In this document: piece after piece, positions 2,303 to 47,423 of the stretch
How positions within the stretch are numbered: the stretch's first letter is position 1
Layout: the number at the start of each line of letters is the position of its first letter
Source of the DNA: Pseudogymnoascus verrucosus
Taxonomy: Eukaryota
NCBI GenBank assembly: GCA_001662655.1
Contig: KV460268.1
Strand: one strand, 5' to 3'
DNA length: 64,000 nt
The notes under the pieces: model-generated
The model's database searches: none
Seen by the model: the letters and a program-made list of their open reading frames with translations, nothing else
Told to the model about the DNA's origin: nothing
Made by a program: the position numbers and the translations under genes

Positions 2303-2969
2303 TGTGATGGGATTGAATCTATTGAACCTAGTCTGCTAAGGCAGAGTGTGGAGTTCAGACAACCTGAGAATCCCATCCATTCAGTAGCTTCTAATTGATT
2401 GTGCCACGTCTAGGCCACCAAAGCCAGGAGGATATTTAAACCCGCCTAGAGACGCGGGGTTACATCCATGATCATGATGTGCACACAAGCCAGTCCTGGT
2501 TCGAGTTCCCGCCTTTTTTCTGCCTCTTCTCCACCGCCTAATCCAATTGAGATTCAATCCAATTAGTCTGGGATTTAAACAGCCCGCGATTCCACTAGCG
2601 GCGGCTTTGGATGACAGGGGCGGGTAACCGAAGAACGAGAGCATGGCATATCGCGGCATTCATTCTCATGTAAGGTACCTATGGTAGTTGGTATTTCAAC
2701 TCCACAAGACAAATAGGCGAACATGATGCATACAGAATTCTGTCTTCAAACTTCACCACTCGTTCACTGTCTTCGGCGGGGCGGGGAGAGGGGGCGGGTT
2801 TCTTGAGTGCGGGGTTCGTCCAGGTTTCCTTACTTTCCTCCATCCTCCCTCCATCATCCTTTCGTCGTGCCCAATTTCTGTAGATTATTGTCCACGATTT
2901 TTGAGTTATCGTCAGCATTGTCATCAAAGATCTAGCTCTCTCTCAGCTTACCCTCTGTCAGAGTCCGCC

Positions 2970-5682: not shown

Positions 5683-5981
5683 GTTTAATGGCGTTTTCCG
5701 GGCGGGTTTGGTCAGATTAGTTTCCGTAGGTTAGATAGGTGTTGGGATGGTTCAGAATTAAATGTGACTGAGAGCTATCTGCCGTCTTCTGCGGGACCGA
5801 ACTCTTCCACAATAACCACTCTTTAGAATAACCCGAATAGAAATAGTCATCTAATCTGTGCCGAATCGCCCTGCGTCGTTCTTAATAGCGCTAGAAGAAG
5901 AGGGTATGCTAGGTAGGATACAATAATCGCGTCGTCTTCCACGCATGCCATGTGGTGTAGGATGTAGTGGGAATAAATGGC

Positions 5982-6062
5982 GGGGCAATGCCGACGCTAG
6001 TAGCATGGAATGGCCTGTATAGGTGGGGCAATGCCGACGCTAGCGGCATTGAGCGGCATTGA
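5982..6062. repeat. 19-bp direct repeat GGGGCAATGCCGACGCTAG x2, followed by GCGGCATTGA x2, in the MFS promoter
   Basis: Exact copies at 5982-6000 and 6025-6043. Each overlaps a CreA-type SYGGRG hexamer (GCGGGG 5980, GTGGGG 6023). Confidence 0.85.
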
Positions 6063-6405
6063 GTGCGCCTGTCGTATCTAGGCCAACTCTGGGCTTCCAA
6101 ATCAAGCGCATGCTAGGATTTCAACCCCACGATTTCCGCCCCATGATTTCCACCCCACGGGGAAATGCGTCAAAGTTGGACTTTGGGCGGATGAGTCGCG
6201 GACCTAGTGCACCTTCGAGTTCGTTCAAGGGTTCGAAGGCTCCTAGTCGTTGCTGTTGACATTAATATATATAAAGGTCCTGTTGATCCTTGGTGTAGAT
6301 GGAATTTTCCACTAGAATCAACATCTCCTACTTTTCCTTGCTTACAAACGAAGTCTCTCTTTGGCTCTCTCTACCTCTTTCTTAGTCGGACAGGACGACT
6401 CTAGC

Positions 6406-8356
6406 ATGTCGACCATGAAGGATGACTTCGTTAGTCACGGCACCCATGTCGAGCTCACCACGTCCCTTAGCCAGAAAAGGGCAGACGATGAGGCATTCAA
6501 AGCCCGTGCCCGTGACGGCAACGAGATTGAACATGCCTTGAGCCCCCTCGAGGCCATCAAGGCCTATCCCATGGCTATCTTCTGGTGTCTTATGGTGTCA
6601 ATGTGCGTTGTTATGGAAGGCTACGACACGATTCTGATTGCCAACTTCTTCGCGTATCCAACCTTTGCCAAAAAGTATGGCCAGAGCGTCGATGCAAATG
6701 GCCATTGGCAATTAAGCGCCTCTTGGGTATGTTAATTGCGTCTTCCCAAATGCAATATGCAATAGATACTAACCTCTGCACAGCAAGCAGCGGTCGGCAG
6801 AGGCAGTGGTATTGGCGCCTTCTTTGGTGTGCTCCTTAATGGTATCATCGTCAATAAATTCGGGCAAAAGAGGGCTGTTATCGGCGCTCTCATCTCCCTC
6901 TCCTGCACGCTCTTCATCGTGTTCTTTGCTCCTGATATCAAGATTCTCCTCGTCGGTCAGATCCTCTGTGGTCTTCCTTGGGGAGTCTTCGCTAGTTCCG
7001 CCCCAGCCTACGCTTCTGAGGTCCTTCCACTGTCCCTCCGGGTCTACATGACGTCTTACACCAACATGGTATGTATTTGCTCTCTGATATGAAACTCGAA
7101 CAATTGCTGACGTCGGCAGTGCTTCATCATGGGTCAGCTTATTGCTGCTGGCGTTTTGGCTGGATTGGTTAACAGGACCGACGAATGGGGATATCGTATT
7201 CCATTTGCGCTTCAATGGTATACCGCATCTCGCCACTCCTCGGTCTTAATTCAACGACTAACAACAACAGGATGTGGCCGGTAGTGCTGATCCCAATACT
7301 TTGCTTCGCCCCCGAATCTCCATGGCATCTGGTCCGGCAAAATCGACTTGAAGAGGCGGAAGCCTCCCTACGCCGGTTGCAACGTGCCTCTGCCCCTATC
7401 GACCCCCAGAAAACGCTCGCTGTCATTATGCACACCAATGCTCTTGAAGAGGAGCTTTCAAAAGGAACTAGGTATCAGGACTGCTACAAGGGTAACGAGC
7501 TCCGCCGCACCGAAATTGCCTGCATGACTTTCATGGGCCAAGTACTCGCTGGTGCGCCCTTTGCATACACCTCGACCTACTTCTTCCAGCAAGTTGGCAT
7601 GCCGACGGACATGATCTACAATATGAATGTGGGAGCTACGTGTATGGCTTTCGTCGGAACCCTGGTCTCGTGGTTTGGGATCATGCCATACTTTGGACGT
7701 CGCAAGATTTACATGGTATGTTCCCTTTGGCTTATATTGTGTGGGGCTATCCTCCGAAGCCCTGTTACGCAGCACCGTGTGACATAAGGCTGATTTTGAT
7801 CTCTAGTCTGGTGCATTCACCATGTCCGCCATTCTCTTCATCATCGGATTCTTAGGAACAAAGGGAAACGTTATGGCTGTGGGCTATACGCAATCCGCGC
7901 TCTGTCTCGTGTGGACCTTCATCTTTCAGCTCTCAATCGGTCAACTGGGCTGGGCTATACCAGCCGAAGTCGGCTCTACGCGCCTGCGCCAGAAGACCAT
8001 ATGCCTTGCTCGCAATGCATACTACATTGCTGATGTCGTTGGTGGCGTGCTGCAGCCGTATTTCATGAACCCCACCGAGTGGAATCTCAAGGGTTACACG
8101 GGTTTCATCTGGGGATCAACCTGCTTTATTCTCGCCATGGTAAGTACTGTTATTTCGCTTTGAGTTCTTCATAGCTAATATCTGCTCCTAGTGGACTTAT
8201 TTCCGCCTTCCTGAGACTAAAGGCCGCACTTTCGACGAATTGGACGTTCTCTTCGGGAAAAGGATCAGCGCAAGGAAGTTTGCTTCGTATAAGGTCGACT
8301 CATTTCACCATAGCATTATGCTGGTACTTCCCAGTGGCGAAAAGGTGGCTGCGTAG
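6406..8356 (+). CDS. MFS sugar porter, general alpha-glucoside/maltose permease family (multi-exon)
   Basis: Exons give MEGYDTILIANFFAYPTFAKKYG, GQILCGLPWG...AYASEVLPLSLR, PESPWHLVRQ, RRTEIAC, PAEVGSTRLRQKT, FRLPETKGRTFDELDVLF. TATA-like TATATAAA near 6267. Stop TAG 8354-8356. Confidence 0.92.
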
Positions 8357-29583: not shown

Positions 29584-30319
29584 TTAGCAGTAAGGTAGTA
29601 ATGGATTTGAACAACTTCCCGCAATAAATGCCTGACTCGTTTTAGTAACGTCCGTCATAAACAGTTGTGCTGAGGGGTCCAAGATATGATCAATAACATG
29701 CACAATCCCCTAAAAGTATGTTAGCGATGGTTATTTTATGAAATCGTTTTTCTTACATTCGTGACGGGAAGATTCGCATCAGTAACAATCGAAACATCGT
29801 TGAGCACCAGCTGGCCCCCGACAATTTGAGTCCCGACATATAAGAAACTACCCGTTTGGATGCGAGTTGACGATGTGTTAAACGCCGAGGTTTTAAGCTG
29901 CGTGTTCGGGATATAATGGTGCTGGATTAGGTTGCCCAGCCACCATTTGCCCTTTGGTGTTGCGACAAACGTGGAGTAGTAAGCTCCGGTATTGTTGAAT
30001 GCTGTATTTGATGGTGCAAAGAACGTATAGGACCAAGTTGCCTGGGAATCGAAGGCTTGAAGAAACCCTTGGTTGGAATTAGGCCTCTATTCTCGCTGGG
30101 AAAAAGACACGGCATACCTCCACATTCTGCTAAAACGCCTGCAAGAGAAGTAAGGTCATCCCTCGATTTTATAAAGTCTAGCAGAGTCGTAACATTTGAG
30201 TTTTTAGGTGGGACATAAGTTCCCTCTGGCACCGTGGCATAAGTGAGAGGCTCACGATCGATGCGATCACACAGCCCAAGAGCAGTGAGAACGATCACAG
30301 AGAAGATACAAAGCTTCAT
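29584..30319 (-). CDS. Small secreted fasciclin (FAS1) domain protein (3 exons)
   Basis: Signal peptide MKLCIFSVIVLTALGLC. FAS1 H1 motif YTFFAPSNTAF, central HHYIP, H2 motif NGIVHVIDHILDP. Ends SCSNPLLPYC*. Confidence 0.88.
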
Positions 30320-30601
30320 CTTTTGCAGTTTTTATATTAGTTGTGAGAACAGAAGTAAGTGAACTGCGTTTATTATTGATTTGACAGTGGAATAGTGCTA
30401 CCAATAAACCGATCCAGCAACGGCCCAGAGCAGCAGTACACTATTCTAAAGAGAATCAGACTTAGAATTGCTTTTTCGGATGTGCCCCGGCATTCTTTGC
30501 GGTAAATACTGCAATAGTTTGATATAATGTCCTCGCACCGGATAATGGGCAAGGTTAGGTGCGGCAGGCCGCTGTAATGCCTCAAGACCCATGGAATTTG
30601 T

Positions 30602-30616
30602 CCGATACTTTCTCCG
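30602..30616 (+). promoter_or_regulatory. Candidate Zn2Cys6 site CCG-N9-CCG (CCGATACTTTCTCCG) in the divergent FAS1/GH27 promoter
   Basis: Near-identical to the motifs at 34592-34606 and 40327-40341 (reverse strand). Confidence 0.6.
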
Positions 30617-30754
30617 GGATCGTTGGATAGCCCCGTCTCGGGTTTTGGGAAGCAACGAAACCGTGAATTAAATAAAATCGACGGAGAGTAATATATGGCA
30701 GAGGACTGACCTATTCTTGTGCAAAAGATGGCTTTCCCAGAGAGTAAACTAAAA

Positions 30755-32172
30755 ATGCTGAAAAATATCACCGTCATTGCTTTGGTCGCTTTCGGCAGTC
30801 CTTGCCTTGGAAAGATTAGTTCTGCAAAACCACAGATGGGTCAGTCTTACTTTGAGCTTGTCTCGCCGATTACCATTTTGTCATCCAAGCCAAATCCTTA
30901 GAAGCTTGCTAATGTGTGACTTAAAAGGATGGAACACGTGGAATACCTTTAAGTCTCATATAAATCAGAGTCTCATTGAAAATACTGCTTCAACTCTAGT
31001 TTCCACGGGACTAGCGCGAGCAGGATATGAATATGTAGTCATCGATGAAGGATGGCAAGCTTATACTAGGGATGCAAATGGTCGCCAACAAGCCAATTCA
31101 ACCACCTTCCCATCTGGAATATCGGGAGTCGCAAAATACATCCATAAATTAAGTCTCAAGGTTGGTATTTATAGGTAAACCACTTCCATTCTGGCATAAT
31201 AGAAATGTACTTAATTAAACAGTGATGCCGGTATATATGACTGCGGATTCTTCCCAGGCAGTTATGGCTACGAAGAGCTTGATGCAAAGACATATGCTTC
31301 TTGGGGAGTAGACTACCTCAAATATGATAACTGCGGAGGCTTTCAGGCCAATACCCTCTCTGCCCAGGAACGCTTCACGATAATGGGAAACTCTCTCAAG
31401 AACTCCGGCAGAGACATATTTTACTCCCTTTGCCAGTGGGGCAATCAGTTTCCCTGGTTTTGGGCAGACCAGTTCAGCGATTCGTACCGCATGTCTGGCG
31501 ATATAACGTCTTCATTTGCAGCTGACAAGAGCGGTGTTTGTAAGACTGCGTATTGCCTTAATACCGGGTATGCGGGTGTTAGTGTTTTGACCATGATTCG
31601 AAAGATGAGAGAGATTTCTGGATTTCAGGCTCCTGGGTCTTGGGGTATGCACACCTTTCCAAGTTTCTTGGGCAAAAATTTGACAATTTCCAGCTGATAT
31701 GGACATGCTCGAGATTGGAACCGGCACCATGACCGAGTTTGAAGAACAAACGCATTTCTCATTTTGGGCAGCTCTCAAGTCACCACTTATCATCGGCGCC
31801 GACATAACTACAATTTCTAAGTCCTCGCTTGCAATTCTTCTCAATAAGGACGCCATTGCTATATCTCAAGATAATGCTGGAGTTGCGGCTTCGTACCTGC
31901 CGGATCTGTCTATCGAAGGTTCTGTTCAGATATGGGCTGGTCCACTAAGCACTGGAAACTCCAAATATGTAATCCTAGCTTTGAACGAAGGGCAGTCTGG
32001 AGTAAATATCACGATTCCGCTGAATGGCATCTTCAAGCCAGAGAATCTCGGGGCCCGTTACAAGGCCAGGGACGTATGGGACAGGAAGAACCTCGGAACC
32101 ATCGAAAGCGACATCACCTTGACGAATGTTTCTAGTCATCAGACCAAATTGCTAGTGCTCTCGAGAGAATAA
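30755..32172 (+). CDS. Secreted GH27 alpha-galactosidase / beta-L-arabinopyranosidase (4 exons)
   Basis: Signal peptide. PQMG|WNTWN, IDEGW, VDYLKYDNC (nucleophile), YSLCQWG, YRMSGDI (acid/base), DMDMLEIG, HFSFWAALKSPLIIG, C-terminal beta-sandwich. Confidence 0.93.
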
Positions 32173-32638
32173 TTTTTAAATAATACCTAGTTTATCGCAC
32201 TGGCCAGTACACTATGCTTTCCGGCCTTTTAGTCCTGTGATGGTATCTTGACATCCTTGAGTATCTTTAATTGCACCGGCCGAGGTCCGCCAGATCGCCC
32301 GGGAATTTATTGTCGACGATTCTCGTTAATCACTCGAATTGAGATGCGGAGTTACTGTGAGTAATAAGCCTGCAAGTTTAATAATACCCCTGCCATATAC
32401 ATACCGTATTTCAACTGCACACCTCATGCTCATTTTAGAGAAGGAGAAGGGCTAGGTCCGACTCCGCTTTACAGCTCCCGTCACCCGCATATGTTTGGAG
32501 TCCTCCATTGGAAGCTTCAATGAATTTCTTAATTATAATATCTAGATTACTTCTAGAGAATTCCCACTCTTCGTTCTGAAATTGGATAATAGGTCTGTAA
32601 TACACGGCTTTATTAACTACCTATCAACGGATATCATC

Positions 32639-34242
32639 ATGAAGGTATGCCTTTCTGCACAATCAACAAGTGCTTCGTCATATTTCATTGCGTTTACAAA
32701 GAAGCTCTTTTTCTAATTCGGTTTTAGATTTTCGAGTTCATTGTTGCACTGTCGTTCTTGGCGGATAACGTTGCAGGAACCGGTGGGCTGAATGGCCTCC
32801 CAGTCCTTAATGGACCCATCAACCCAGTCAGCAATGTCCAGGGGATGAAGAAAGGGCTCGGCGAATTTGTTCATCCCGGACTGTGGCATACGCATGATGA
32901 TTTGGAGCGTATCAGACTTGGTGTTAGCAAGGGACAAGATCCGTGGAAGAGTGCATATGCTAATTTCAGTCTTGACTCGTACTCCCAAGCTTCAGTGAGT
33001 TGGCTGTATCAACCTTCAATTATGTGGCTGCTAACACGCCACAAAGTATGTGATGCAAGGACCTAAACAAGTTCTCTGTCGAGGGCGTTGCAGTAACTAT
33101 ACGACCTTCACAAACGACGCCCGTGCTGCATACCAGAACGCACTGATGTGGTACATTACTAAGAACCAGAGTCACTGGGAACGGTCTACTACCATCTTAG
33201 ATGCATGGGGAACAAACCTTACGGACATCATTGGTACTGATACCTCGCTATTGGTTGCTTTGGAAGGAGATATTTTTGTGAACGCAGCGGAGATCATGAG
33301 GTGGGAAGGAAACTGGGTCGAAAAGGGTGCGGCAGCTTCTGGTGGATCAGGATTCTCTAACCAACTGTACTGGCTGTTTGCAAGACAGTCAATCATAATT
33401 GGACAAGCCAATTATGGATTGGCAAGCATCAAGGCTCTTCTTTCTTTTGCAGTCTACCTCGATGATATATCGATGGTAAAAATGTACATTTCTCTCAGAA
33501 GGCACGAAACTGACCCTTTATAGTATAACTACGCATTGAACGCGTATCAAAACGATCCTTGCGGAGGGTTGTATGGCAACTACCATCCGAAAACTGGACA
33601 GGGCTCTGAAACTGGGAGAGACCAAGGCCATGCTGTCACTGGGCTTGGGTGGGCAGCTTACGCAGCGAGGGTGATTCAATCCCAAGGAGTAGACGTCTAC
33701 TCTGTGGGAGACAATCTACTTCTCAAGGCCGCTGAATATGCGGCGAAATTTAACCTTAACAACGACGTGCCATTTGATCCCAAGTTCTATCGATGCGAGG
33801 CTATCTTGATTAATGGGCCATGGGCCAAGCCCTCAAACATCAGTCGTGGAATTAGCGCGACTAGCCCAAACGTATGGGATGTGAGTAGCCCCTTACCGAC
33901 AAGAGAATATAATTTAATATTGCAGATCATCTACTATCAATATGTTGTTAAGAGAGGTCTCAAAGCACCATGGACTACTAAGGCAAAACAAGCAAAGGAC
34001 GCTGTTGGAGGAGAACAACGGCGTAAGTATTTGAAATTTTCCTTTGCAAGTATGAACACAGCTGACACTGTCAATTTTTAGCAACTGGAAGCGGTCTCAG
34101 TGATCAGCCTAGCTGGGGAGAATTGATTTGGTCATATCCCGGACAAGGCAAGTTCAACAACGACAATGATCGGACAATCTGGGGGGGTGGAGTTATTGGC
34201 CCGGATGGGAACGGAAACATCAACGCTGTCAAACTAGTTTAA
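32639..34242 (+). CDS. Secreted alginate-lyase-domain (PF05426-like, (alpha/alpha)n toroid) polysaccharide lyase candidate (6 exons)
   Basis: MK|IFEFIVALSFLA signal peptide (intron 32645-32727). FVHPGLWHTHDDLERIR, DARAAYQNALMWYIT, ILDAWG, NAAEIMR, GQANYG, ETGRDQGH, LLKAAEYAAKFNL, DQPSWGELIW. Confidence 0.82.
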
Positions 34243-34579
34243 AATATAATCTTTTAAAGTTTGAACTTGTTGTCCTTAAAAATGTGAACCGTGAGAAAAA
34301 TATGACGAAAGATTCGGTTCGAGAATCCTATAGCAAAGGCGTGGATTAGAACTGGCAGGGCAGCACTCATGCTTGGTCGACTAAATAACCTTTAGGCGCA
34401 AGAACTGCTAGCATACATGTATCTGAAAAAAACTAAACAAGCATTTATCAATCGGCGTTTGTAGAGCCAACCCTTACATTCTATGCGGAGAAAAGTAAAT
34501 CCAAATCCTATGGTAGTGTGCTTTCATATTCGCATTGGCATTGGCCCTTGAGATCGTCGGCCATGGCCTGTGCGCAGAA

Positions 34580-34606
34580 CCGGCGCTCTTCCCGGTACTT
34601 CCCCCG
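34580..34606 (+). promoter_or_regulatory. Three CCG triplets at 12-bp period, including CCGGTACTTCCCCCG, in the GH88 promoter
   Basis: CCG at 34580, 34592 and 34604. The second spacer matches the cluster motif. Confidence 0.6.
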
Positions 34607-35023
34607 GCGCCCGGAGAGGAGATGGCCCCTTAGTCGGCCAAGGAACATCGCGACCTTCATTGATAGAAGGTAGGTAAATCGAGCAATCACTAATGCCGGG
34701 CGAGGTAGTCGGAAACCTTCCGTGTAATTATCCCTTGGTCCGACGGTCCGATTACTCCGAGTGAGCATTGTGTTCATTACTCTGGAGCCTCTTTGGCTCC
34801 TGGCCTCCTTGCTGAACATTGCCCCCTAGAGTTTTGGACTCGAGGCGGGCTGTAACTCTCCGCAATAAACTGGTAGCCTAGTCTACATAGGTATCATAAA
34901 TATAATTTCCTCATTTGTGCTCGACATGGTCATGACACGAGTACAAGAGAGTGAGGCTGCCTTGACCTATAGCTTCTCCCTTTGCCATCTATCTTAATTC
35001 AAATCCCCTCCACCGCCCTAATC

Positions 35024-36764
35024 ATGGTGGCCTCGACAAAAAGAGCCCAATCTACATTGGCTACCAACGGCGAGTTATCTGGCGATGCTGATTCTTTGGT
35101 GAGTTTATATCCACGAGCAACTTTGGAAGGAAAATGCTAAATTGGAACATAGAAGCGCAGGAAGACTGTGCAACCCTATAAACCGGCCAATGGCATCGGA
35201 CTTGTAACGCCACCTATAAGTAACTCTTTGAGCATGAGTCCAGCGGCGAATGGATGTCTATCAGCATTGTACTCCGCTTCAACAGTAGCAAAGATTTGGG
35301 GAGTTGCGCAACGGGCCTTGAATAAGGTGCGGATTATGGTATTAGGTGCTCAGTATTGAATGTTAACATGGTTCTAGTCAGCTCCGCCAACCCTCTATCC
35401 GGAATTTACAAAACCTGGAGGCACAGCATACGTTTATCGGGAGTCCGATTTTTGGACATCTGGATTCTTCCCCGGCTCCCTATACCTCCTTTTAGAGCGG
35501 CAACGAAAGTACCCTCAGATAGCCTTTCCTCCGTCATATTCTGATCTTCCTCAGACCCCACATACGCTTCAACTACAGTGAGATAATCTCCCATCTGAAC
35601 CTCCATATTATTGCTCTTAGTTTTCTTAAATTGATGCTAACTGTATGGTAGATATGCGTGCAAGTGGTGGACGGTGAATCTCCACAAGAACTCCCTTCTT
35701 ACTACCACCCATGACCTCAGCTTCATGATCTCCCCTTGGGCAAGGAAGGCCTGGGATATTGAAAATGACTCGAAGGCATATGAAACACTGATAACTTCCG
35801 CACGAACTTTAGCCACTCGATATAGTTCAAAAACAAAATGCCTACGGTCTTGGGACACCTGTGTTACGAAGAGGTATTCGTTTACAGATCCAAGCTTAGA
35901 CTTCTTGGTAATTATAGTAAGTTCTGCATCAAACCTCAGACGAATTACAGCATTCTAGTTTGTAGTACCTAATTATGAAGCCAGGATAACATGCTAAACC
36001 TCGACCTCCTCTTCTGGGCCGCTTCCGAACTCCGCGACTCGGCCCTCCGCGACATCGCCATTTCCCACGCCGAGTCAACGCAGACTCACCATATCCGCCC
36101 TGACTTTTCCACTACTCACGTTGTAAATTTCGACCAAGCTACCGGCGCCGTAAAGGCCAAGATGACTAACCAGGGTTACGACGACTTCTCCTGCTGGTCT
36201 CGCGGCCAGGCATGGGCCATCACCGGATTCGCCCAGACCTACAACTGGACGCACAACCCTTCTTTTCTTGCCACCGCCCGTGGTTGCGCAGATTACTTCC
36301 TCGCACACCTTCCCTCCAGCGGCGTCCCACCATGGGACTTCTCCGCGCCGGCCACATCCATCCAGCTCACTGACACCAGCGCCGGGATCATAGCCTGCTA
36401 TGGAATGCTCCTTCTGCACACCTCACTCGTGGCTCTTGGGCAGCCCTCCTCCTACCTAAAAGGTGCGCTCCACATCCTTTCCGGGCTGTGCACAACGCAG
36501 CTCTCTCCACCGGCACACTTCCACAGCGACCCCATCGTGATCCCTTCCGTTGAGCATGGGACGAGCAACGAATCTGGCGAGTTAGAAGTGGAAATGGGGA
36601 AGGGCGCGGAGACGATATTGGAGGGTTCGACGATTAATAACTATGAGTTTGCGCCTAGACAGTGGGCGGATCATGGGCTGGTTTATGCGGATTATTATTT
36701 CTTGCTTGTTGGGAACTTATTGCTAGATATGGGAATTGGAGGACACATCGCGGGCCAAGTTTGA
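35024..36764 (+). CDS. GH88 unsaturated glucuronyl hydrolase, intracellular (multi-exon)
   Basis: FWTSGFFPGSLY, THDLSF and VII|DNMLNL (the two catalytic-region Asp motifs of UGL), RSWD, WSRGQAW, PPWDF, DTSAG, YADYYF. No signal peptide. Confidence 0.92.
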
Positions 36765-37062
36765 GTGTGGCTTGGGAAAGAGCTGGGTTGTGAGTTTGGG
36801 TGACATACATAGATAGGCTAGTGATGACTCTGTGGTTTTTTGGTAGATGGCGAGACAGAGGTCATATAGAATGCAATGTTAGATACCTTTTGAGATCCAT
36901 ACTATGCCTAAATTTCTATAAAACTTTACAAGTCCCTACAGTCGAATAATAGCCACGCCAAAATATGACTTTCAATGCGCCGTGCCTAGGGATACCGTGG
37001 ATTTTCGATTCCCCTACATCGCCTCCCGCCTAACCTCTCAACCCAGTAGTTCCGCTCTCTAC

Positions 37063-39919
37063 TTATTCATCCCTTTCTCCTTCCTTCCCATTCTGCCCGG
37101 AAAACATACTGACCCTCTGCGTCGGCAAAAACGAATATGTTAACGGATTCTGATACTCAAATCCATACCCCATCCCCTCCTGTCCATAATCCTCCATGCC
37201 ACCTTGTCCTTGTTTTTCTGTGGAATCAAAGAACTCGCTGAGCTGCTGTATGTTGCTCATTCCCGGGGAGGGGTTAGCGCAATGGGGCTGGAAGGCCAGG
37301 GGGAGGGGCGGGAAGGCGAGTGAGATACTGTCTGGTGAACCTTCCTGGTCGGTGATAATGGTGCCGCCGCTCACTAGTTGCTGGCCAATCGGCAGGGCTA
37401 AGTGGGAGATGGAATTATTTGGCAGAGTGTCATTACGGTTTGTGTGGCTTGGTTGGGGCTGTGTGAGTTGTGAGACAAATGCTGTTTGCTGCGCAGAAGA
37501 ATTCTGGAGATTATCCTCCGAGTATGCCGCTTGTCGGATATCGAGGGCGTGCGGGCCTCGATCGCGAGCGTGAACTAATCGTGAGGCGAACTTGGAGGCG
37601 AGATTTTGAGATACCTCATATAACCCATCTTGGGCATGCGGGCCATTCCAGCGCCGCGAGATCTCTCGGAGGCTGTTCGTCAAGGAATCGAACTCCTGCG
37701 GTAGAGGAATATTATAGTGCAAAGTGTGCGCAAGTAACATTCGCCCGCTGATGAAGAGGCAGAATGCGAACTGGGGGTTTGTGAGGGAGATGGAGTCTTG
37801 CAGATATTTTTCCGCGATAATGGAGACCTCCATAGCAGCGGCTAGGCATGTTTCGGCGCTTGAGGTGGATGGGAGCCGAATGGACCTCGCTTGCCACTCT
37901 GGCGATGGATAGGCGATTCCCTGGTGCAGGAGCCCAACGGCTGTGTTGTGAGTTATGTGAGCCAAGGTCAAGTTCGGATCGAGGACACCATCGGCATTTA
38001 ATGCACACGCTTCTCGCCATTTTTCGGGTAAAAACAACCTCCATCTAAAACGATATTAGTGTATATTCGCAGTATTCAAACCAACTGGAAGCCAATCGCC
38101 AAAAGAAACTTACTGGACGAGCCTTAAGTCTAGCTCCTTGAAGCGCATCAACCACATCTGTACGTCCTGATCATTGGACATATTCACAGCTTGTCGCAAG
38201 AAAAAGGTTGTTACAAGACTCAGGCTCTCTGACGCCTCGATGCAATAAGCAAAACCGCCAATTAGGCGTTGGTCTTCAAGTTCGGGCCTCCAAGATGGCA
38301 GAGCTCCACCAGCGGTTTTATCTGCAACTCCGAAATACGGCGTCGGGGATTTAAGAGGCCTGCCTTCCTCCCACAATGCTCCTTCGCATGGAAGACGCCT
38401 TTTGGCATCGGCACTTGTTAATGAGAAGTTCCACCCAGTGGCTATACTGCAGAATCGATCCATCAAGAAAACATTCCAGAATACGCGCCGACGCTCCTCT
38501 CTCTCTATCCAACTATTACACGGAGGGAGGAAAGCCATACGCTTGATGAGAAATTCTTCAGCAGACTGAGATTGATCCTCTTCTTCTACGCTTAGTTGTA
38601 GCTGCTCAACGGTCCTCGTCATACTTCCAACAATAGACCAGGCCGAGGGCCCACGGCCGCTGCCAATCTAGAACATAGTTAGCAAATATCCTCACATGTG
38701 ACAGCTGGGAGTGCCTTACGGTGTCGAAAGCACAAATGACGAGAGCCTGCAGATTCTCAACAGAGAAGGATTCCATACTCTGCAGAATTACTATCTGCCT
38801 GCTCTTCGTGGAATATTTCATTCTCACTTCGGCGCTGCTGACCCTCGGGTCATTGGAGAATCGAATGCACAGAGACACAATAGCGTGGAATATCGTAGTT
38901 AATTTTTGACGCTGGGCGGGATTGGCCATTCGCTCACGAAATTGCTTCACATGAAGAATCGGAATCCAGGGATGTATACTACGAAAATAAATATCGACCA
39001 AGGCGTCGATCAAATCATCTGGGGGGAGGCAATATTCCTTGTCCTCTAACATTGACTGTGGTGCTGGCTGTGGCCTCTGTTGTTGCTCTTCTTCTCCTGT
39101 GCTGTAGGCGCGTCGACGCTTTAATGGGCTGGTTATGCTACCATCAGATGGATCGAAGTCGGCCGAAAGATGCGATAGGGTAGACTTAAGTCGACTTGTG
39201 TATACTTTCAGTGTCTCGCCGGCATTTGTGGCGGAGTCCAAGGATGTGGGTGTTTGAGCCTGGATGGAATTCAGGCAATTCCAGACCTGCTGCCACAGGA
39301 CCCCTTGCCCAAGAAACATATTTTCCAGGGTCGCTTTAAATGTTGTTAGCGGCTACATATCAAATATAACTGCTAACTAAGGAAGGCAATAGCATGGCCA
39401 TGATGTGTTCAGTTGTCTCGCAAGATTAGACTGATGGAACGAGCTTCATGCTTACTTTCCAATAGAAGGCAACGAGAGCGCAGGGAATATAGAAATTGAA
39501 TATTCGCGACGCAGAACAACAAGGGGAACGGCCCAAACATACCGACCCTTTGGTTGAGTTTCTCGACTACGCCTGTCCGTAACCCCGGCTTCATCTTTCG
39601 GTCGTCATACACACAATCAACATCTTAAAAGATATTAGAATAACCCAGTAATAGCTTTTAAATATTGCAGCTTACTGAATCTCACACAATGTGAACAGGG
39701 TTGCTTCCTCGAGCATCTTGCTTTCTTCTTGCGGCATGGCTGGCAACTAGATATATCATCAGTCTGGCTGGTTCCCTTTCCTCTCAGGGAAGACCATGCA
39801 ACTCACGCTGGGCCATCATCCTCTGCTCCTCCTTTGTGTCCCTTGCCACTGCCGGTATTCGACTCTTGTACGTGTAAATCATCATCGCTCACCGCATTCT
39901 CGGCAACGTTATTGCGCAT
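37063..39919 (-). CDS. Zn(II)2Cys6 transcription factor, probable cluster regulator (multi-exon)
   Basis: CQPCRKKKARCSRKQPCSHCVRF|..CVYDDRKMKPGLRTG. Middle domain YFRSIHPWIPILH, ESFSVENLQAL, EERRRVFWNVFLMDRF, NLTLAHITHNTA. Confidence 0.9.
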
Positions 39920-40326
39920 GTTTCGATGTAGGCGCGAAAGTTTCGCACATTTCATTTAAACATTTCATTCGCAAAGGCTCTACAAACATAAATAAATGGT
40001 GCTGAACAGCCCAGAGGTGCGGAGAAGGCTCGTGCTCCTCGCACATAAGCACGCTACAGGGGTATATACCAAGGTAGCGTGCGGGGTACCGATCTGTTGG
40101 AGGGATTTAAGAATTTACACTACCTACAGATCATGTGATTTCAGACCTTCCTCCTTTTTATTTTTGCTCTCTGCAGCAGCTAATATCTGCACGCATCGCA
40201 GACTCATAATTCCACAGGTCAGACCGGCTCTTACAGTGGAAATGCCATCCGTTGAATATAGCTAGGTTGCTAGGTATACCGGGCCCCCTCTAGTCCTCTT
40301 AGTCATCTCCTAACGTACTATCAGAG

Positions 40327-40353
40327 CGGAGGAAGTGTCGGAGTTTTCTCCGG
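40327..40353 (-). promoter_or_regulatory. Three CGG triplets at 12-bp period (reverse CCGACACTTCCTCCG) in the divergent TF/MFS promoter, overlapping a CreA-type GCGGAG
   Basis: CGG at 40327, 40339 and 40351. GCGGAG at 40326-40331. Confidence 0.6.
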
Positions 40354-40613
40354 CACAACACACCCCCCTCGTAACTGTTTCCCCACATCTACTTCGCTGT
40401 CCTAAATCTGCGGGGCCCCATACGGGGTGAAGCGGAGAGAGTGGAGCCGCTGAGTCCTAGTATCCATCTCTTCTCCGCGCCGGCCAATGCGATTAAATGT
40501 CTTAGCTATATATCTTGCATGCATCCATTTCAACTCTCATAACGCTCATTACGCTGATTCTCTCTATCACCCAAAACCAAAATAGCAACAGACAATATTG
40601 CGCAGCTAGCAGC

Positions 40614-42565
40614 ATGGTCCAGCAAGAGAAACCCTCGGAGGTTCGCCATGACGAGATAGCTCCCTGCACCCAGCCCGCTGAGGAAAACTATCACCAAACA
40701 AATGAAGATCAGGAGGTTTGTTCCTAATCTCATATCATACCGATGTTCGTTTACTAACTTACCCTGACTGGAAGACCGCTAAGTACGTGGGTGGAAATAC
40801 TACCTTCGTCGACGAGGAGACTAGTAACGCGCTTTTCTGGACAGTCAACAAGAGAATCCTAGCATGTATGCTCGGAACTTATTTTTGCCAATCTTTAGAC
40901 AAAGGCACCCTTGGCTTCGCCTCGATTATGGGTATCCAAGATGATGCTCACCTCGTTGGCCAAGATTATAGGTTTGTTCTCTTCGACTCGATTTACTAAA
41001 GGGGTACACCCCAGGTCTAACCTCGATCTCAGTTGGCTTGGCACAATATTATACATGGGAGTGCTTGTCGGAGAGTATCCCACCAACCTCCTGCTACAAA
41101 AACTTCCTGTTGCAAAATATGTCGCAGCCAACGTTTTTCTATGGGGCATTGTCATTGCTTGTTCAGCAGCTGCCAAAGACTTTAAGTCCTTAATGGTAGT
41201 CCGATTCCTGCTTGGCATGTTTGAATCCTGCATACAACCCGCATTTATCATCATGTACGCTCATCTGCTCCTTTAAATTCCCTGAAAAACAAAACTGACA
41301 TACATCAGGACAAGCATGTGGGCAAGTCAACATATCCCAAAATCTAACTCGCAAGCACCATCTAACACACCTATTTCAGTATACGAAACGCGAACAGACC
41401 GTCCTAACTTCGCTCTGGTATTGTATGACTGGAGTACAATTAATGGTAATTTCTATGACTCCCTAATAAAATCCATTAACCAACCTCGACATAGGTCGGA
41501 GGTATCATTGCGTGGGGTGCAAGCCACTACGTCGGGCACTCTATCTATTCCTGGCAACTCCTATTTCTCGTTCTAGGATGCGTGACGTGCGGCTGGGCAG
41601 TTTTTATCGGCTGGTGGCTGCCTGATTCTCCACTGAAGGCGAAGTGCTTCACCGAGGACCAGAAGCGAATGATGGTTGAGCGTGTCCGATCTAATGACAC
41701 TGGGATTCAAAACAAGACTTACAAGGTCTACCAGGCTCTTGAGACGATTAAAGACCCTGTTATCTGGTGCTATATCATGCTGCAGATTACTTCAACTCTT
41801 GTCATCGGTGGCCTCGGCGTGTTTTCGAATATAATCATCAAGTCCTTCGGATTCACTCTTCTACAGACCCAGCTCTTGAATATAGCACAGGGCGCTGTGA
41901 CGATTTTGATTATGGTTGGTGGTGCCACCTTAGGTCAGACAACCGGCCAGACTATTTTGGTTATGCATGTGAGTCTCCTCCTATTCCATCCTCAAAGTAT
42001 AATCTAACAAAATAAATAGACATGGACAATGTGAATTTCCTCAGAATCTAACCCTAGTATTGTATTCCAGCTAATACTACACAGCCCTCCCATAATCGGA
42101 ACCGCGGTTATCTACTCCATTACACCCACCCCCCAAACCCGCGTCGGTCTCCTGATCGCCTTCTACTGTACCCAATTCCACCTTGCACAAGGGAATCTCA
42201 TCTTTTCTCTGATCTCCCGCAACATCGCTGGCCAAACCAAGAAATCTACCGCCCTGGCCATGACCTTTGTGGCCTGGGCCGCCGGGAACATGACCGCCCC
42301 CCAGATCTTCCAGAAGAGCGATGCTCCTCGCTACAAGAATGGCTTCATAGCGCACTTCTGCCTCTACGTCCTCTTTAACATCTTCCTAGTGGTCTTGCGA
42401 CTTTTGCTTACGCGCCGCAACAAGGCGAAGCAGATCACAACAGCGACCGCACTGGCTCTCGAGGGGACGACGGACTTGAAGCAGGTGGATGGAAAAATCA
42501 CGCACGCGCGGGCGTTTGATGATTTGACGGATAAGGAGAATCCGGATTTTAGGTATGTGTTTTAG
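40614..42565 (+). CDS. MFS anion:cation symporter, Dal5/allantoate-permease family (many short introns)
   Basis: TYFCQSLDKGTLGFASIMG, WLGTILYMGVLVGEYP, RFLLGMFES, WLPDSPLKAK, NIAGQTKKST, APQIFQKSDAPRY, DLTDKENPDFRYVF. Confidence 0.92.
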
Positions 42566-42846
42566 GGGAGTGGGAGGATAGTTCCTGTTGCTTGAGGCGA
42601 CTCCGCGGTTGGGAGATTGGGCTGCTATGTGTATACAATGAAACCAGTCGTGAGATGCAGACACACTCTTGCGCACCGATATTCCCCTCAGAAATGAAGC
42701 AAAAGATACCTCTTTCGTAATTGCCGTTCAAGATTTTATCTATCCTTGTGCAGCTATGCCTCGTGAAATATTTAATAAGTATTACAGATGTGATTATATA
42801 AGTTGTGATGAATTCTTAGCTACCATGTTTTGACAGTTTAAACTCA

Positions 42847-43768
42847 TTACGGATTAACGACCCTTCGGCCATCCGTCTGGCCATCGCTTACGTCGTACCA
42901 ACTGATGTTGTCAAAATACAACGTTCTGGTTCCATCATTGTAATTCTCAATATCTACAAGAAAGGTTACTAAAAAATTATTTGTGATATACTCGGAAATG
43001 TTTAAAAGGGAGGGGACGAGCGGGGGGGGAATTATATGTGTGTGTACATATATATATATATTGGGACCACCTACCATAAGCATACTGGCCATTTTTGAAA
43101 TAGAATCCACTGGCGAGCGCATCATCGGACCAACTGTCACCAAAACCGACGTTAATGTTTTTTGAACTGTACACATTGTCGCCATTGTACCACACCTCCT
43201 ACGCGCCCTTTTCTGCTGCGGAGACCTTGAAGCGGACGATGACACTGTTCCAAGTATCCCGCGCAGTGGAGCTCACGATGACATGCTGTGTAGGATTTTC
43301 GCAGGATGAACGATGATCGACGACCAGCTGATTGCTCGTGATGGTAAGAGTTCCACACCAGCTCGAGCACCCCCCCGGGCAGAACTGCTGGGCAACAACT
43401 GTTGACTTGTCGGTTGGGAAGGAGGAGCTGGGAACATAGAGGGCAAATCCCTGACAGCCTTCATTCTTCAGAATCTCGTTGGTTTTGCCAGAATCGAAAT
43501 GGCAAATCTCGGCCCCCTTGTCGTCTCGCGTCCCATCGTAGTTGCTCTCATCAAAATACACCTCGAGCTTGCCGGAGCCAGCGTAGACCGGCGACTTGCT
43601 CGCTGCTTGGGCGTAAGAGGGCGACTTCTGGTTGCACGCAGAGAATGGGCCTAAAGACCCTTCGAATCCACTAGCCTTCAGCGTTGATGGGCATCCCTCC
43701 GAGTTGTCATAGTAATAAACACCTACTCTCCATAGTTCTATTGCGATCACCGTGCGTAGAAACTTCAG
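42847..43768 (-). pseudogene. Disrupted beta-jelly-roll polysaccharide lyase-like gene (PF14099 / PL20-heparinase-I-like fold)
   Basis: One frame reads ...KGAEI..QGFALYVP..VVAQQF..DTWNSVIVRFKVSAAEKGA*EVWYNG..FYFKNGQYAY|DIENY..RTLYFDNISWY. In-frame TAG at 43199-43201, intron 42954-43074, no in-frame ATG (CTG at 43768 heads KFLRTVIAI). Confidence 0.75.
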
Positions 43769-44309: not shown

Positions 44310-47300
44310 ATGGCAGACCCAGTTGGGGCCGGCGCCGGGATTGTTGGCGTCATTGGTCTAGCCATCCAAGTCACGCAGGTTGTGGTCCAATTTGGTATGG
44401 ACTGGAAAAATGCGCCAGATGATGTTAAGGCATTCATGGCCGAATTAGGGGCTCTGAAGACCGTGTTGTCAGAAACAAATACCAATATCCTCCTCAATGC
44501 AGACTTTGAAGCGGCCTTTCAGGACCAACCGTCGGTACTATTATCTCAATTGGGGCCTAATGCTCCGTCAACAACAGACACAAAGCGGTTGCTAGAGATC
44601 TGCAAGAAAGAGCTGGAATCGTTGCTTAAAGAGCTGAAAAAGAGGGGAGAAGGCCATCAATTAGGTTGGGGGAGATTCAAAAGTGCCTTTTTGGCTCAAG
44701 ATACTCGAGATTCGGTTGAAAATCTATGCCGACAATGTCAGCTGTTGAACAGCATGCTCTCGATCGACGCGGCTGTGCTGGGAGCAACCACGTATAAAGA
44801 AGTCAAGGAGGCACGGAAAGAGCAACAGGAATGGCACGAGGCCGAAGAAAAGATTTCCATGGCTATAAGAGGTGGCGTAGACGAGTCTAACTCGCGACAA
44901 GAGAATCAAATACGGAAGCACCAGGACCAAGCAATTCTCGACTGGCTTACCCCTATCGATTACGCTCCTCAACAGAGCGATTTTATCAGTCGGCGACAAA
45001 CAGGGACTGGACAGTGGCTTCTCGATTCGACAGAGTTCCAGTCATGGCTTATGACAGAAAAACAGACGTTGTTATGTCCGGGAATTCCAGGTTCAGGGAA
45101 GACAATTCTTACGTCAATTGTGATAGAAGAGCTTATCATGCAATTTGGCAATGATAAAAACATAGGCATCGCATATCTCTATTGCAACTTCCGGCGCCGA
45201 GATGAGCAGAAGATTAACGACTTATTACAAAGTCTTCTCAAACAGTTAGCTCAAGGTTTAAATCCTCTACCAGACGCTGCAAAATCTCTCTACGCTAAAC
45301 ATATTAATATCCGAACGCGGCCAACATTAGATGAGCTCTCACAGGCTCTACATGCAGTTGCTGCTTTGTATACAAAGGTCTTTATCATTGTTGACGCCCT
45401 CGATGAATGTCTAATGACAGGTAGCCACCGATCGAATTTTCTATCGAGGATCTTTGATGTCCAAGAAAAAAGTGGATCAAACCTGTTTATGACATCAAGA
45501 CATATACCAGAAATCATTGAAATATTTAGCGGGCATACATTGTTGGAGATTCGTGCATTAGAAAGTGATGTACGGAAGTATGTGGATGGCAACATATCAA
45601 ATCTGCCGTCTTTCGTTAGGCGCAGTCCCGAGTTACAAGAGGAAGTTAAGACTGGGATCGTGGAAGCTGTTGATGGCATGTATGTAATATATACTCAAGC
45701 CCTTTCAAAACACTAATTATTCATATAGGTTCTTGCTCGCGCACCTTCATCTAGATTCTTTAATTGGAAAAAGATCACCGAAGGCTGTCCGAACTGCATT
45801 GAAATCGCTCCCCTCTGGATCCAACGCATACGACGAAGCCTATAAGGATGCAATGATTCGAATTGAGGGACAACTGTTGGATCAAAAAGGCCTTGCTTGG
45901 CAGGTACTATCATGGATCACTTGTGCGAAAAGACCTTTGACAATGGTTGAACTCCAGCATGCACTTGCGATAGAACTAGGCGAATCTAGCCTCGACGAAG
46001 ATAACCTCCCACAAATTGAGGATATGGTCTCAGTTTGTGCCGGATTAGTCACTGTCGACGAGGAAAGTGAAATCATTCGACTGGTTCATTATACAACACA
46101 GGAGTACTTTGAGCGAACGAAGGAAACATGGTTTCCAAATCTGGAGGCTGAAATTACGAAAATCTGCGTCACATATCTCTCATTTGATACGTTTAAAGGT
46201 GGAGTCTGCCAGAACGACAAGGAGTTTGAAGAACGACAACAGTCAAACCAACTTTACAATTACGCCTCATTTAATTGGGGTCACCACGCGCGCGAAGCTT
46301 ATACATCTATCCCAGAAGTCCACAGCTTTCTCGAAACAGATGGTCAACTTCAGGGATCTATCCAAGTACTACTAGTCAAGAAGACGCATTACTTGGGCGA
46401 GTCACAGTATAGCCGAGTCTTTCAAAATGGGTTGATAGGAATACACTTAGCAGCATATTTCGGAGTTGAAAAAACAGTACAATATTTCCTCGGCACTTAT
46501 ATCTCAGATGTGAAAGATAAATCTGACCGAACGCCACTGTCGTGGGCTGCAGCGAATGGACACGAAGCTGTAGCTAAACTGCTGTTAGCGAACAACGCTG
46601 ATATAACCTAAAGGATACACGCTGGGGTCAGACGCCACTGTCGTGGGCTGCGGAGAATGGCCAGGAAGCTATGGTTAAGCTGCTGGTAGCGAACAACGCC
46701 GATATTGAATTGAAGTGTACAAGATATGGCTGGACGCCACTGGTGTGGGCCGTGGTAAATGGGCGCGAAGCTGTAGTAAAGTTTCTACTAGAGAGCGGTG
46801 CTGAGTTCAACTCACAAGATAACTCCAACCAGACGCCGCTGTCATGGGCTGCAGTGAAAGGGCATGAAGCTATATTCAAGCTGCTGTTGGAGAAAGGCGC
46901 TGATATCGATTTAAAGGATGACAAAACCCGAGCACCACTATCGTATGCTGCAGAGTACGGACACGAAGCTATACTCAAGCTACTGCTCGTAGATAGTGCC
47001 GAGGTTAACTTGAAGTCTACATATTTGAGCAGGACGCCGCTGGTGTGGGCCGCACCGAATGGACATGTAGCTGTAGTCAAGTTACTGCTACAACACAATG
47101 CAGAGGTCGACGCAGAGGACAACCATAACCGGACGGCCTTATCGCATGCGGCAGAGCGCGGGCACGAAGCTTTAGTTAAACTGCTGCTCGCGTACAATGC
47201 TAAGGTCAACGTAGAGGACGGCTCGGAACGAACGCCGCTGCTGTATGCTGTACGGGGTAATCACGAAGCTATAGTCAAGATGCTGTTGGAGAAACACGCT

Positions 47301-47423
47301 AAAATCGACTTGAAGGATACCACCCATGAGCACACGGCGTCATCGTTGGCGGAAATGAAAGAGGATGAGGCTGTGATAAAGTTGCTAGAGATACACAAGC
47401 AGGAACAGTGTGTAGTCTGTTAA
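44310..47423 (+). pseudogene. Fungal NLR: HeLo-like N-terminal domain + NACHT + ~10 ankyrin repeats, frameshifted near 46605
   Basis: MADPVGAGAGIVGVIGLAIQV, Walker A GIPGSGKT, Walker B FIIVDALDE, intron 45680-45728 (DGM|FLLA), winged-helix CAGLVTVDEE..RLVHYT. TAA at 46609, after which the ankyrin repeats continue in another frame. Confidence 0.85.
46531..47390 (+). repeat. Ankyrin-repeat array (~99-102 bp units)
   Basis: Repeated TPLSWAA..GHEA..KLLL units. Identical ACGCCACTGTCGTGGGCTGC at 46531 and 46632. Confidence 0.9.

Follow-up and report, generated by a model that had tools for sequence, protein, structure and literature searches.

The question raised by the 64,000-nucleotide stretch of Pseudogymnoascus verrucosus contig KV460268.1 (assembly GCA_001662655.1) analysed here, hereafter the window, is whether an ascomycete can carry a self-contained unit for the breakdown of a uronic-acid polysaccharide. 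A preliminary description, made from the sequence alone, had listed seven contiguous genes between positions 29584 and 43768, encoding a fasciclin (FAS1) protein, a GH27 glycosidase, an alginate-lyase-domain protein, a GH88 enzyme, a Zn2Cys6 transcription factor (TF), a major facilitator superfamily (MFS) transporter and a second, disrupted lyase. It is concluded that the cluster is genuine, that it is conserved among fungi and in part co-regulated, and that it works like a bacterial lyase-GH88 locus, with a lyase-like family not assigned to any known one. A sequence of lyase action, import and GH88 hydrolysis is very probable, and we give a probability of about 0.45 to the more specific reading, in which the cluster is a pathway conserved in ascomycetes for an acidic heteropolysaccharide of plants with 4-linked β-D-glucuronic acid (GlcA) and L-arabinose, most likely arabino-glucuronomannan.

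Gene models, conservation and co-regulation

Splicing of the window with canonical introns yielded intact models for six genes, extending from 29584 to 42565, with stop-free frames and GT/GC-AG introns, and the models agreed with the place and order of the seven genes first described. The FAS1 gene (29584..30319, minus strand) encodes a secreted single-domain fasciclin of 212 amino acids (PF02469, E 4e-9), and a divergent intergenic region (30320..30754) separates it from the gene for a secreted GH27 of 410 amino acids with an IDEGW motif (30755..32172, plus strand). The secreted lyase-like protein (32639..34242, plus strand; 438 amino acids), which keeps HPG, QANYG and ExGRDQxH motifs, is followed by a predicted unsaturated glucuronyl hydrolase of family GH88 (35024..36764, plus strand; 497 amino acids). 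The TF of about 816 amino acids (37063..39955, minus strand; PF04082), the start and third intron of which are uncertain, has a six-cysteine motif in its model and is separated by a second divergent region (39956..40613) from the MFS transporter (40614..42565, plus strand; 521 amino acids; PF07690), for which ‘Dal5-type’ is a label of the preliminary description alone. Pfam matches comprised Fasciclin, Melibiase_2/C, Fungal_trans and MFS_1, and those of PF05426 to the lyase-like gene (E 0.002) and PF14099 to the seventh gene (E 3e-4) were both under the Pfam cut-offs. A crude hydropathy test found hydrophobic N-termini on FAS1, GH27 and the lyase and none on GH88, in agreement with the earlier assignment of three secreted proteins and a signal-less GH88; among homologs, such an N-terminus was present in 66 of 98 lyases and in only 4 of 120 GH88 proteins, two of the four being GH27 fusions.

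The models are further supported by contigs of two sequencing runs from two studies (X3 and X4), in which 13 of the 27 predicted introns were skipped (FAS1 2/2, GH27 2/3, lyase 3/5, GH88 2/4, MFS 4/7), both FAS1 introns being skipped in X4. The runs lack an RNA record, and their origin from transcripts is presumed because the contigs are spliced. No intron was skipped in the thinly covered TF (0/5) or the uncovered seventh gene (0/1), counts that are uninformative on expression. The MFS model requires a 13-nucleotide exon (41309-41321) with a GC donor and an 11-nucleotide micro-exon (42020-42030), and the intron pair flanking the latter was skipped in both X3 and X4 contigs. The window lyase model is identical over 438 amino acids to the public protein P0283, which supports its splicing; P0283 possibly comes from the same genome and is therefore not counted as conservation. 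A word scan of the intergenic regions, run without a control, established no shared promoter motif, with CGG-type words present.

Linkage of the core genes extends well beyond this genome. A hand tally took in 20 named fungal genomes for which positions could be given to both core genes; in 14 of them, spread over the Leotiomycetes, Sordariomycetes and Eurotiomycetes, the lyase-like gene and GH88 lay within six gene numbers of each other. The tally omits Pseudogymnoascus, additional strains of species in which the genes are linked, two pairs that share a contig but lack usable numbering, and three more strains of the T. harzianum group, in which the genes are unlinked. Further adjacency was given by mis-fused gene models joining GH27 to the lyase, GH27 to GH88 (Colletotrichum) and MFS to GH88 (Boeremia), and the nearest other named lyase homologs were from Pseudogymnoascus (94% on one exon). 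Among 21 metagenome fungal loci, the eight longer than 9 kb represent five distinct arrangements: six of the cluster genes in a different order (L007), TF, GH88, MFS and lyase together (L003 group), GH88, MFS and lyase with a partial TF (L012), lyase with GH27 and FAS1 (L016), and a lyase without any of its cluster partners, only 2 kb being visible upstream (L011). FAS1 homologs are found in L007 and L016, TF homologs adjoining GH88 or the lyase in L003, L007 and L013, and MFS homologs in L003, L007, L012 and L013. Linkage is thus kept across three fungal classes and the cluster is conserved, which is the outcome on which the preliminary description had staked itself beforehand.

Two other kinds of gene recur near the lyase. 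Aldo-keto reductases lie near the lyase at L003:8287-9375, L016:6322-7170, L011:4351-5226 and L084:10395-11363, the copies in L003 and L016 being 63% identical; they are absent from the window cluster and might reduce the keto-uronate freed by GH88. In two fungal loci (L007:17275-18408 and L014:943-1944), a further PF05426 paralog, more distantly related, is found close to the cluster lyase.

In Aspergillus niger, the orthologs of GH88 (An01g01340) and of the lyase-like protein (An01g01360) share 53% and 54% identity, respectively, with the window models, and a PL20-like gene directly follows the lyase-like gene (GLA07584, 07586, 07587). An01g01320 is reported as a GH27 (PMC5701360), and the supplementary lists of PMC5617896 name NRRL3_01736 as fasciclin, 01737 as GH27, 01738 as fungal transcription factor, 01739 as GH88 and 01742 as polysaccharide lyase; by gene numbering, NRRL3_01740 and NRRL3_01741 would be the MFS transporter and the toroid lyase. 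These lists hold threshold-passing genes only (1376 at 8 h). On sugar-beet pectin at 2 h, the TF and GH88 stood at 91.6 and 89.2 fragments per kilobase per million (FPKM), falling to 10.3 without araR (about 9-fold), with no drop in single gaaR or rhaR mutants (PMC5617896). At 8 h, expression peaked in the gaaR/rhaR mutant (FAS1 122, GH27 103, GH88 100 and the PL20-like 01742 9.6 FPKM), and the additional deletion of araR lowered these genes 15-, 40-, 5- and 6.6-fold, respectively, with changes of 0.9-, 3.1- and 1.0-fold in three listed neighbour genes (PMC5617896). An01g01320 was also 3.8-fold lower without araR in a second data set (PMC5701360), and no entries matching the cluster terms were present in the supplements of PMC5847190 and PMC10455118. 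Together, five of the seven A. niger orthologs are co-regulated on this one substrate in dependence on AraR and not on GaaR or RhaR, in line with the co-induction expected at the outset (PMC5617896). A few genes away, NRRL3_01730-01731 encode an MFS transporter and a GH2 that are mutually co-expressed (r 0.97) and less AraR-dependent.

The lyase-like toroid protein and the PL20-like pseudogene

What the lyase-like protein is cannot be read from its Pfam label. PF05426 scored 17.9 bits on the window exon against a gathering cut-off of 22.2 and gave no match to full-length fungal homologs, whereas bacterial relatives pass, the domain being carried by 83-85% of the nearest Atlas clusters. A secreted lyase-like gene, as first described, is retained, with the correction that the ‘alginate-lyase domain’ of that description corresponds to a borderline Pfam match. 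The largest exon gave no match in the PDB at E<=1, and family-level sequence similarity to PL5, PL38 and PL17 is lacking, the best profile match having E 0.003. The fold was more telling: a homolog 85% identical to the window protein was modelled as an all-helical (α/α) toroid (predicted local distance difference test score, pLDDT, 85.9), and its best matches were all toroid lyases, headed by PL5 A1-III (Z 25.5, root-mean-square deviation 3.3, 319 residues aligned, 12% identity) and followed by PL17 and PL38 (Z 23.6-25.5 for the three families, including 24.4 and 24.2; 11-13% identity). Hydrolase and epimerase barrels ranked lower (Z <=15.6). PL27 was not among the fold matches listed and is not thereby excluded. 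Two other identities were rejected, that of PL43 (FdlA) because its fold, a β-helix, differs from the all-helical model, and that of a FoRham1-type gum-arabic lyase, which has a β-propeller.

With 3233 representatives at E<=0.001, the family is a large one; it includes members with tandem PF05426 domains and, in 35 fungal and bacterial members, keeps His51, Asp115, Glu173, Arg266, Asp267 and His270 invariant and Asn213 and Glu263 nearly so. A PL38 structure could be aligned by profile, though weakly (E 0.003): Asn213 then matches the Asn of the Asn-His motif, a Tyr or Trp takes the place of the His in that motif, and the catalytic Tyr is matched by His270, so that only the Asn of the PL38 catalytic set (Asn-His plus Tyr) appears to be kept. 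These PL38 residue roles agree with the titles of mutant structures. On the model, the protein would work like a PL5 or PL38 lyase, yet should not be filed in either family. In a FastTree phylogeny of 79 rows, the fungal proteins form one clade within the bacterial family; the tree is midpoint-rooted, and therefore no donor or direction is claimed.

The altered catalytic His and Tyr raise the alternative that the toroid protein is a hydrolase, an epimerase or a binding protein, or that the genes are linked without sharing a single pathway. Dermatan sulfate epimerase has this fold too (Z 21.0), with weaker matches to GH88, GH105 and GH76, and linkage is lost in some genomes. Set against this are the invariant polar residues (Asp, Glu, Arg, His), the fusion of the lyase domain in bacterial relatives to GH88, an enzyme whose substrates are produced by lyases alone, and a linkage that spans three fungal classes and several bacterial phyla; we regard a non-lyase or non-pathway explanation as improbable.

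The seventh gene (42847..43687, minus strand; PF14099) encodes a PL20-like jelly-roll lyase and is a pseudogene in this window, disrupted twice, as its earlier description as disrupted implied: an in-frame TAG (43201-43199) stands where homologs carry Tyr, and the 5′ signal-peptide part is lost. Homology stops at 43687, and the missing part was not found elsewhere in the 64-kb window; in run X2, loose ends occur at 43689, and one of them encodes what looks like the absent N-terminus. The top match is the PL20 glucuronan lyase 2zzj (profile E 1.6e-6, Foldseek E 4e-9; 20% identity, low-confidence model with pLDDT 58), and a single-exon PDB search gave no match. None of the 21 metagenome fungal loci has a PL20-like gene. 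Elsewhere in Pseudogymnoascus, PL20-like models P0440, P0446, P0447, P0449, P0466 and P0467 are truncated or internally deleted, through either decay across the genus or annotation error. A NACHT/ankyrin NLR-like gene (44313-47423, plus strand) directly flanks the cluster beside the break that removed the 5′ end.

Substrate clues and the proposed pathway

Clues to the substrate come from the GH88 and GH27 genes. The GH88 exon matches solved GH88 structures at E 5e-25, and in a 91%-identical homolog the THD motif aligns with the Asp mutated in 2ahf and the IID motif with Asp149; both motifs are present in the window model. The IDEGW motif of GH27 replaces the IDDCW or IDDFW of solved α-galactosidases. 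Its Glu maps to rice residue 52 and is presumably equivalent to Glu99 of SaArap27A. Besides the window protein, the GH27 proteins of the L007 and L016 clusters have this Glu, as do 9 of 10 homologs with the motif. A bulky residue (Glu, Ile or Tyr) at the α-galactosidase Asp site marks β-L-arabinopyranosidases (PMC5853685, PMC4598101), and the cluster GH27 is a probable β-L-arabinopyranosidase by this residue.

β-L-Arabinopyranose and β-GlcA are both known residues of type-II arabinogalactan (PMC5853685, PMC8424115), which could itself be the target, as arabinogalactan protein (AGP) or gum. The lyase would then cut a sugar off O-4 of terminal β-GlcA (for example at Rha-1,4-GlcA, possibly a pectin-AGP link), GH27 would remove β-L-arabinopyranose, and GH88 would free unsaturated GlcA from a β-1,6-galactoside after import, with galactanases encoded elsewhere. 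AraR dependence on beet pectin agrees with such a target, as do GH43 genes adjoining the lyase in L002, L006 and L017 and a GH53 in L003. No β-1,3/1,6-galactanase is present in the window cluster or was recognised among the scanned neighbours (about 170 of 583 bacterial open reading frames (ORFs) run through Pfam, GH43 subfamilies untyped), gum arabic is broken down in Fusarium by a known route with GH79 and the β-propeller FoRham1 (PMC8377490), and a mannose isomerase found near bacterial relatives is left unexplained. An arabinogalactan target, the strongest of the rival readings, is considered unlikely.

That isomerase comes from 58 bacterial loci with relatives of the lyase, which represent one subgroup and are kin, so not independent. 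GH88 is present in 17 and fused to the lyase domain in three (L057, L059, L062), which supports the lyase-GH88 coupling proposed in the preliminary description. Other genes include GH97 (15 loci), GH43 (11), ROK-family genes (9), GH95 (6), GH127 (5) and GH29 (3), with a GH51 in a Streptomyces locus. GH97, GH43, GH127 and GH51 count towards an arabinose-bearing target, and the ROK-family genes towards mannose. Mannose-6-phosphate isomerase occurs in five, in three of them directly after the lyase-GH88 fusion, against a chance expectation of 0.4 loci (assuming two genes per 5 Mb); for three independent arrangements p is about 0.009, as a rough control. No α-mannosidase family was seen among the Pfam-scanned bacterial ORFs. 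An isomerase right after the fusion, without a mannosidase, fits an unsaturated GlcA-Man disaccharide product, such as a glucuronomannan backbone would give. In arabino-glucuronomannan, this backbone is [4)-β-GlcA-(1,2)-α-Man-(1], and arabinose-, fucose- and xylose-type helper enzymes would suit the side chains of plant glucuronomannan. GH88 of Bacillus GL1 splits the unsaturated GlcA-β-1,2-Man bond (PMC10881899).

Several other features of the bacterial and fungal loci were recorded. A gene for a GH28-like β-helix protein lies near the lyase in 7 of the 58 bacterial loci, in fungal L007 (a 33%-identical homolog) and in a Streptomyces locus (L007:11829-13385; L057:8478-9893; L084:1854-3368); an FdlA-like identity for it was rejected, the search giving GH28-type matches only. 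Two families without a Pfam match, each in 7 of 58 loci (L044:14859-17312; L055:19325-20935), are candidate pathway enzymes. Pontiella loci L074, L075 and L077 carry the lyase family, with a GH29 fucosidase adjoining in two, an arrangement that would fit algal fuco-glucuronomannan. In 300 genomes of one bacterial phylum there was one new lyase-family match at E<=1e-45, a lone gene with no CAZyme neighbours among ORFs of at least 200 amino acids; L085 is likewise a lone lyase-family gene.

The nearest solved folds being alginate and glucuronan lyases, a polyuronate or microbial glycan (β-1,4-glucuronan, alginate, xanthan-like side chains or fungal wall uronides) might instead be the target, with GH27 and AraR incidental. 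Activity on alginate is reported for two recently created lyase families in which bimodular fusions occur (bioRxiv 10.64898/2026.05.19.726164), and tandem PF05426 occurs in the present family. On the other side, the PL20-like gene is dispensable, being broken in the window and missing from the metagenome loci, the PL38 catalytic set is not kept, arabinose is absent from pure polyuronates, and xanthan routes require an endoglucanase and an α-mannosidase, both lacking in the cluster (PMC10881899). Such a target is judged quite unlikely. Of the substrates first proposed, an arabinose-bearing plant polymer is thus favoured and glucuronan is little supported as main target, as is alginate; the evidence favours adding glucuronomannan to the list.

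Taking together the gene structure, the splicing observed in relatives, the linkage, the partial co-regulation, the fold and the conserved residues, we infer the enzyme activities, transport step, TF and FAS1 roles and substrate of the following glucuronomannan pathway. L-Arabinose would act via AraR, on which expression depends in A. niger, with an early response of the cluster TF and GH88 and a later one of the secreted proteins, by a presumed TF relay. GH27 would strip β-L-arabinopyranose caps, as its specificity residue suggests, and the toroid enzyme, judging from fold and alignment, would cleave Man-α-1,4-GlcA by β-elimination, with Asn213 neutralising the carboxylate and His270 as base; the PL20-like enzyme would be an optional second lyase. 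The small unsaturated product would be taken up by the MFS transporter and split by cytosolic GH88 into mannose and unsaturated uronate, a substrate predicted here for a family whose chemistry is established. FAS1 is, at a guess, probably a secreted binding or accessory protein.

Several observations weigh against this pathway. The mannose clue comes only from bacterial relatives about 27-35% identical to the fungal proteins, in some three independent arrangements, and 53 of the 58 bacterial loci lack the isomerase; to our knowledge, beet pectin is no established source of glucuronomannan, and arabinose induction may be a scouting signal only. The core genes are unlinked in 6 of the 20 named genomes. 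The differential lists for A. niger contain neither 01740 nor 01741, the AraR dependence of GH88 at 8 h is modest (1.6-5.3-fold), and GH88 correlates equally with neighbours (r 0.83-0.87) and with cluster genes (0.77-0.91) (PMC5617896). The GH27 residue rule is not absolute for specificity (PMC5853685), and if the families PL_New1 and PL_New2 are this lyase-like family, alginate activity is reported for some members (bioRxiv 10.64898/2026.05.19.726164).

Elsewhere in the window, a separate small group (503-7787) comprises a fungal TF-like frame, a Sip1/raffinose-synthase-type gene (PF05691) and a sugar-transporter-like frame, and is possibly an α-galactoside unit.

Comparison with known systems

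No description of the cluster was found in the literature searched, subscription journals being mostly outside its coverage, and neither An01g01350 nor An01g01360 turned up in a main text there. In the expression studies consulted, GH27 and GH88 of A. niger appear only as entries, GH88 being ‘putative’ without a named lyase partner, and the locus offers a candidate partner, transporter and regulator. As A. niger, a standard laboratory fungus, has the cluster under assigned gene numbers and with public expression records, the question can be put to experiment there immediately. Should glucuronomannan prove to be the substrate, the enzymes would serve for detecting and dissecting this little-studied plant polymer, and the lyase would become the founder of, or an addition to, a new CAZy family whose active site is unusual. 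With odds somewhat against the whole combination, we tentatively propose an undescribed glucuronomannan pathway common to ascomycetes, including A. niger, and to soil and gut bacteria, with a new lyase family using His for the catalytic Tyr, organised in fungi like a polysaccharide utilisation locus (PUL) with an AraR-to-cluster-TF cascade and a fasciclin accessory.

Bacterial lyase-GH88 loci, such as those for xanthan in Bacillus GL1 and the glycosaminoglycan PULs, share with the cluster a secreted lyase, import, an intracellular GH88 and a local regulator; the window cluster is eukaryotic and intron-containing, replaces ABC or SusC/D systems with MFS and Zn2Cys6 proteins, and has another lyase and an arabinose signature. 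PL5 A1-III, PL38 and PL17 resemble the window lyase in fold, in the Asn of the Asn-His motif and in a Glu and Arg ahead of the catalytic site, whereas sequence identity is low, the motif His becomes Tyr/Trp and the PL38 catalytic Tyr aligns with an invariant His. The Trichoderma reesei PL20 glucuronan lyase (2zzj) is the best match of the seventh gene, which is only distantly similar and broken here. The PL43 fucoglucuronomannan lyase FdlA cuts the Man-α-GlcA bond proposed here (PMC6267234), but is a right-handed β-helix (PMC9410043) of marine origin acting on a sulfated substrate. The Fusarium gum-arabic pathway (FoRham1, GH79, GH27) likewise combines a fungal lyase for 4-substituted GlcA with GH27 helpers, but its lyase is of the β-propeller type and the text of that paper does not mention GH88 or GH105 (PMC8377490). 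PL_New1 and PL_New2, new lyase families with bimodular fusions from a soil Bacteroidota (Niabella) locus, may overlap with the present family because tandem or bimodular members occur in both; their reported activity is on alginate, in only some tested members, and the available text mentions no fungal cluster (bioRxiv 10.64898/2026.05.19.726164). Finally, the A. niger L-rhamnose cluster with RhaR also links enzymes to a TF, but handles a monosaccharide, whereas the window cluster spans the route from secreted depolymerisation to cytosolic hydrolysis (PMC5674754).

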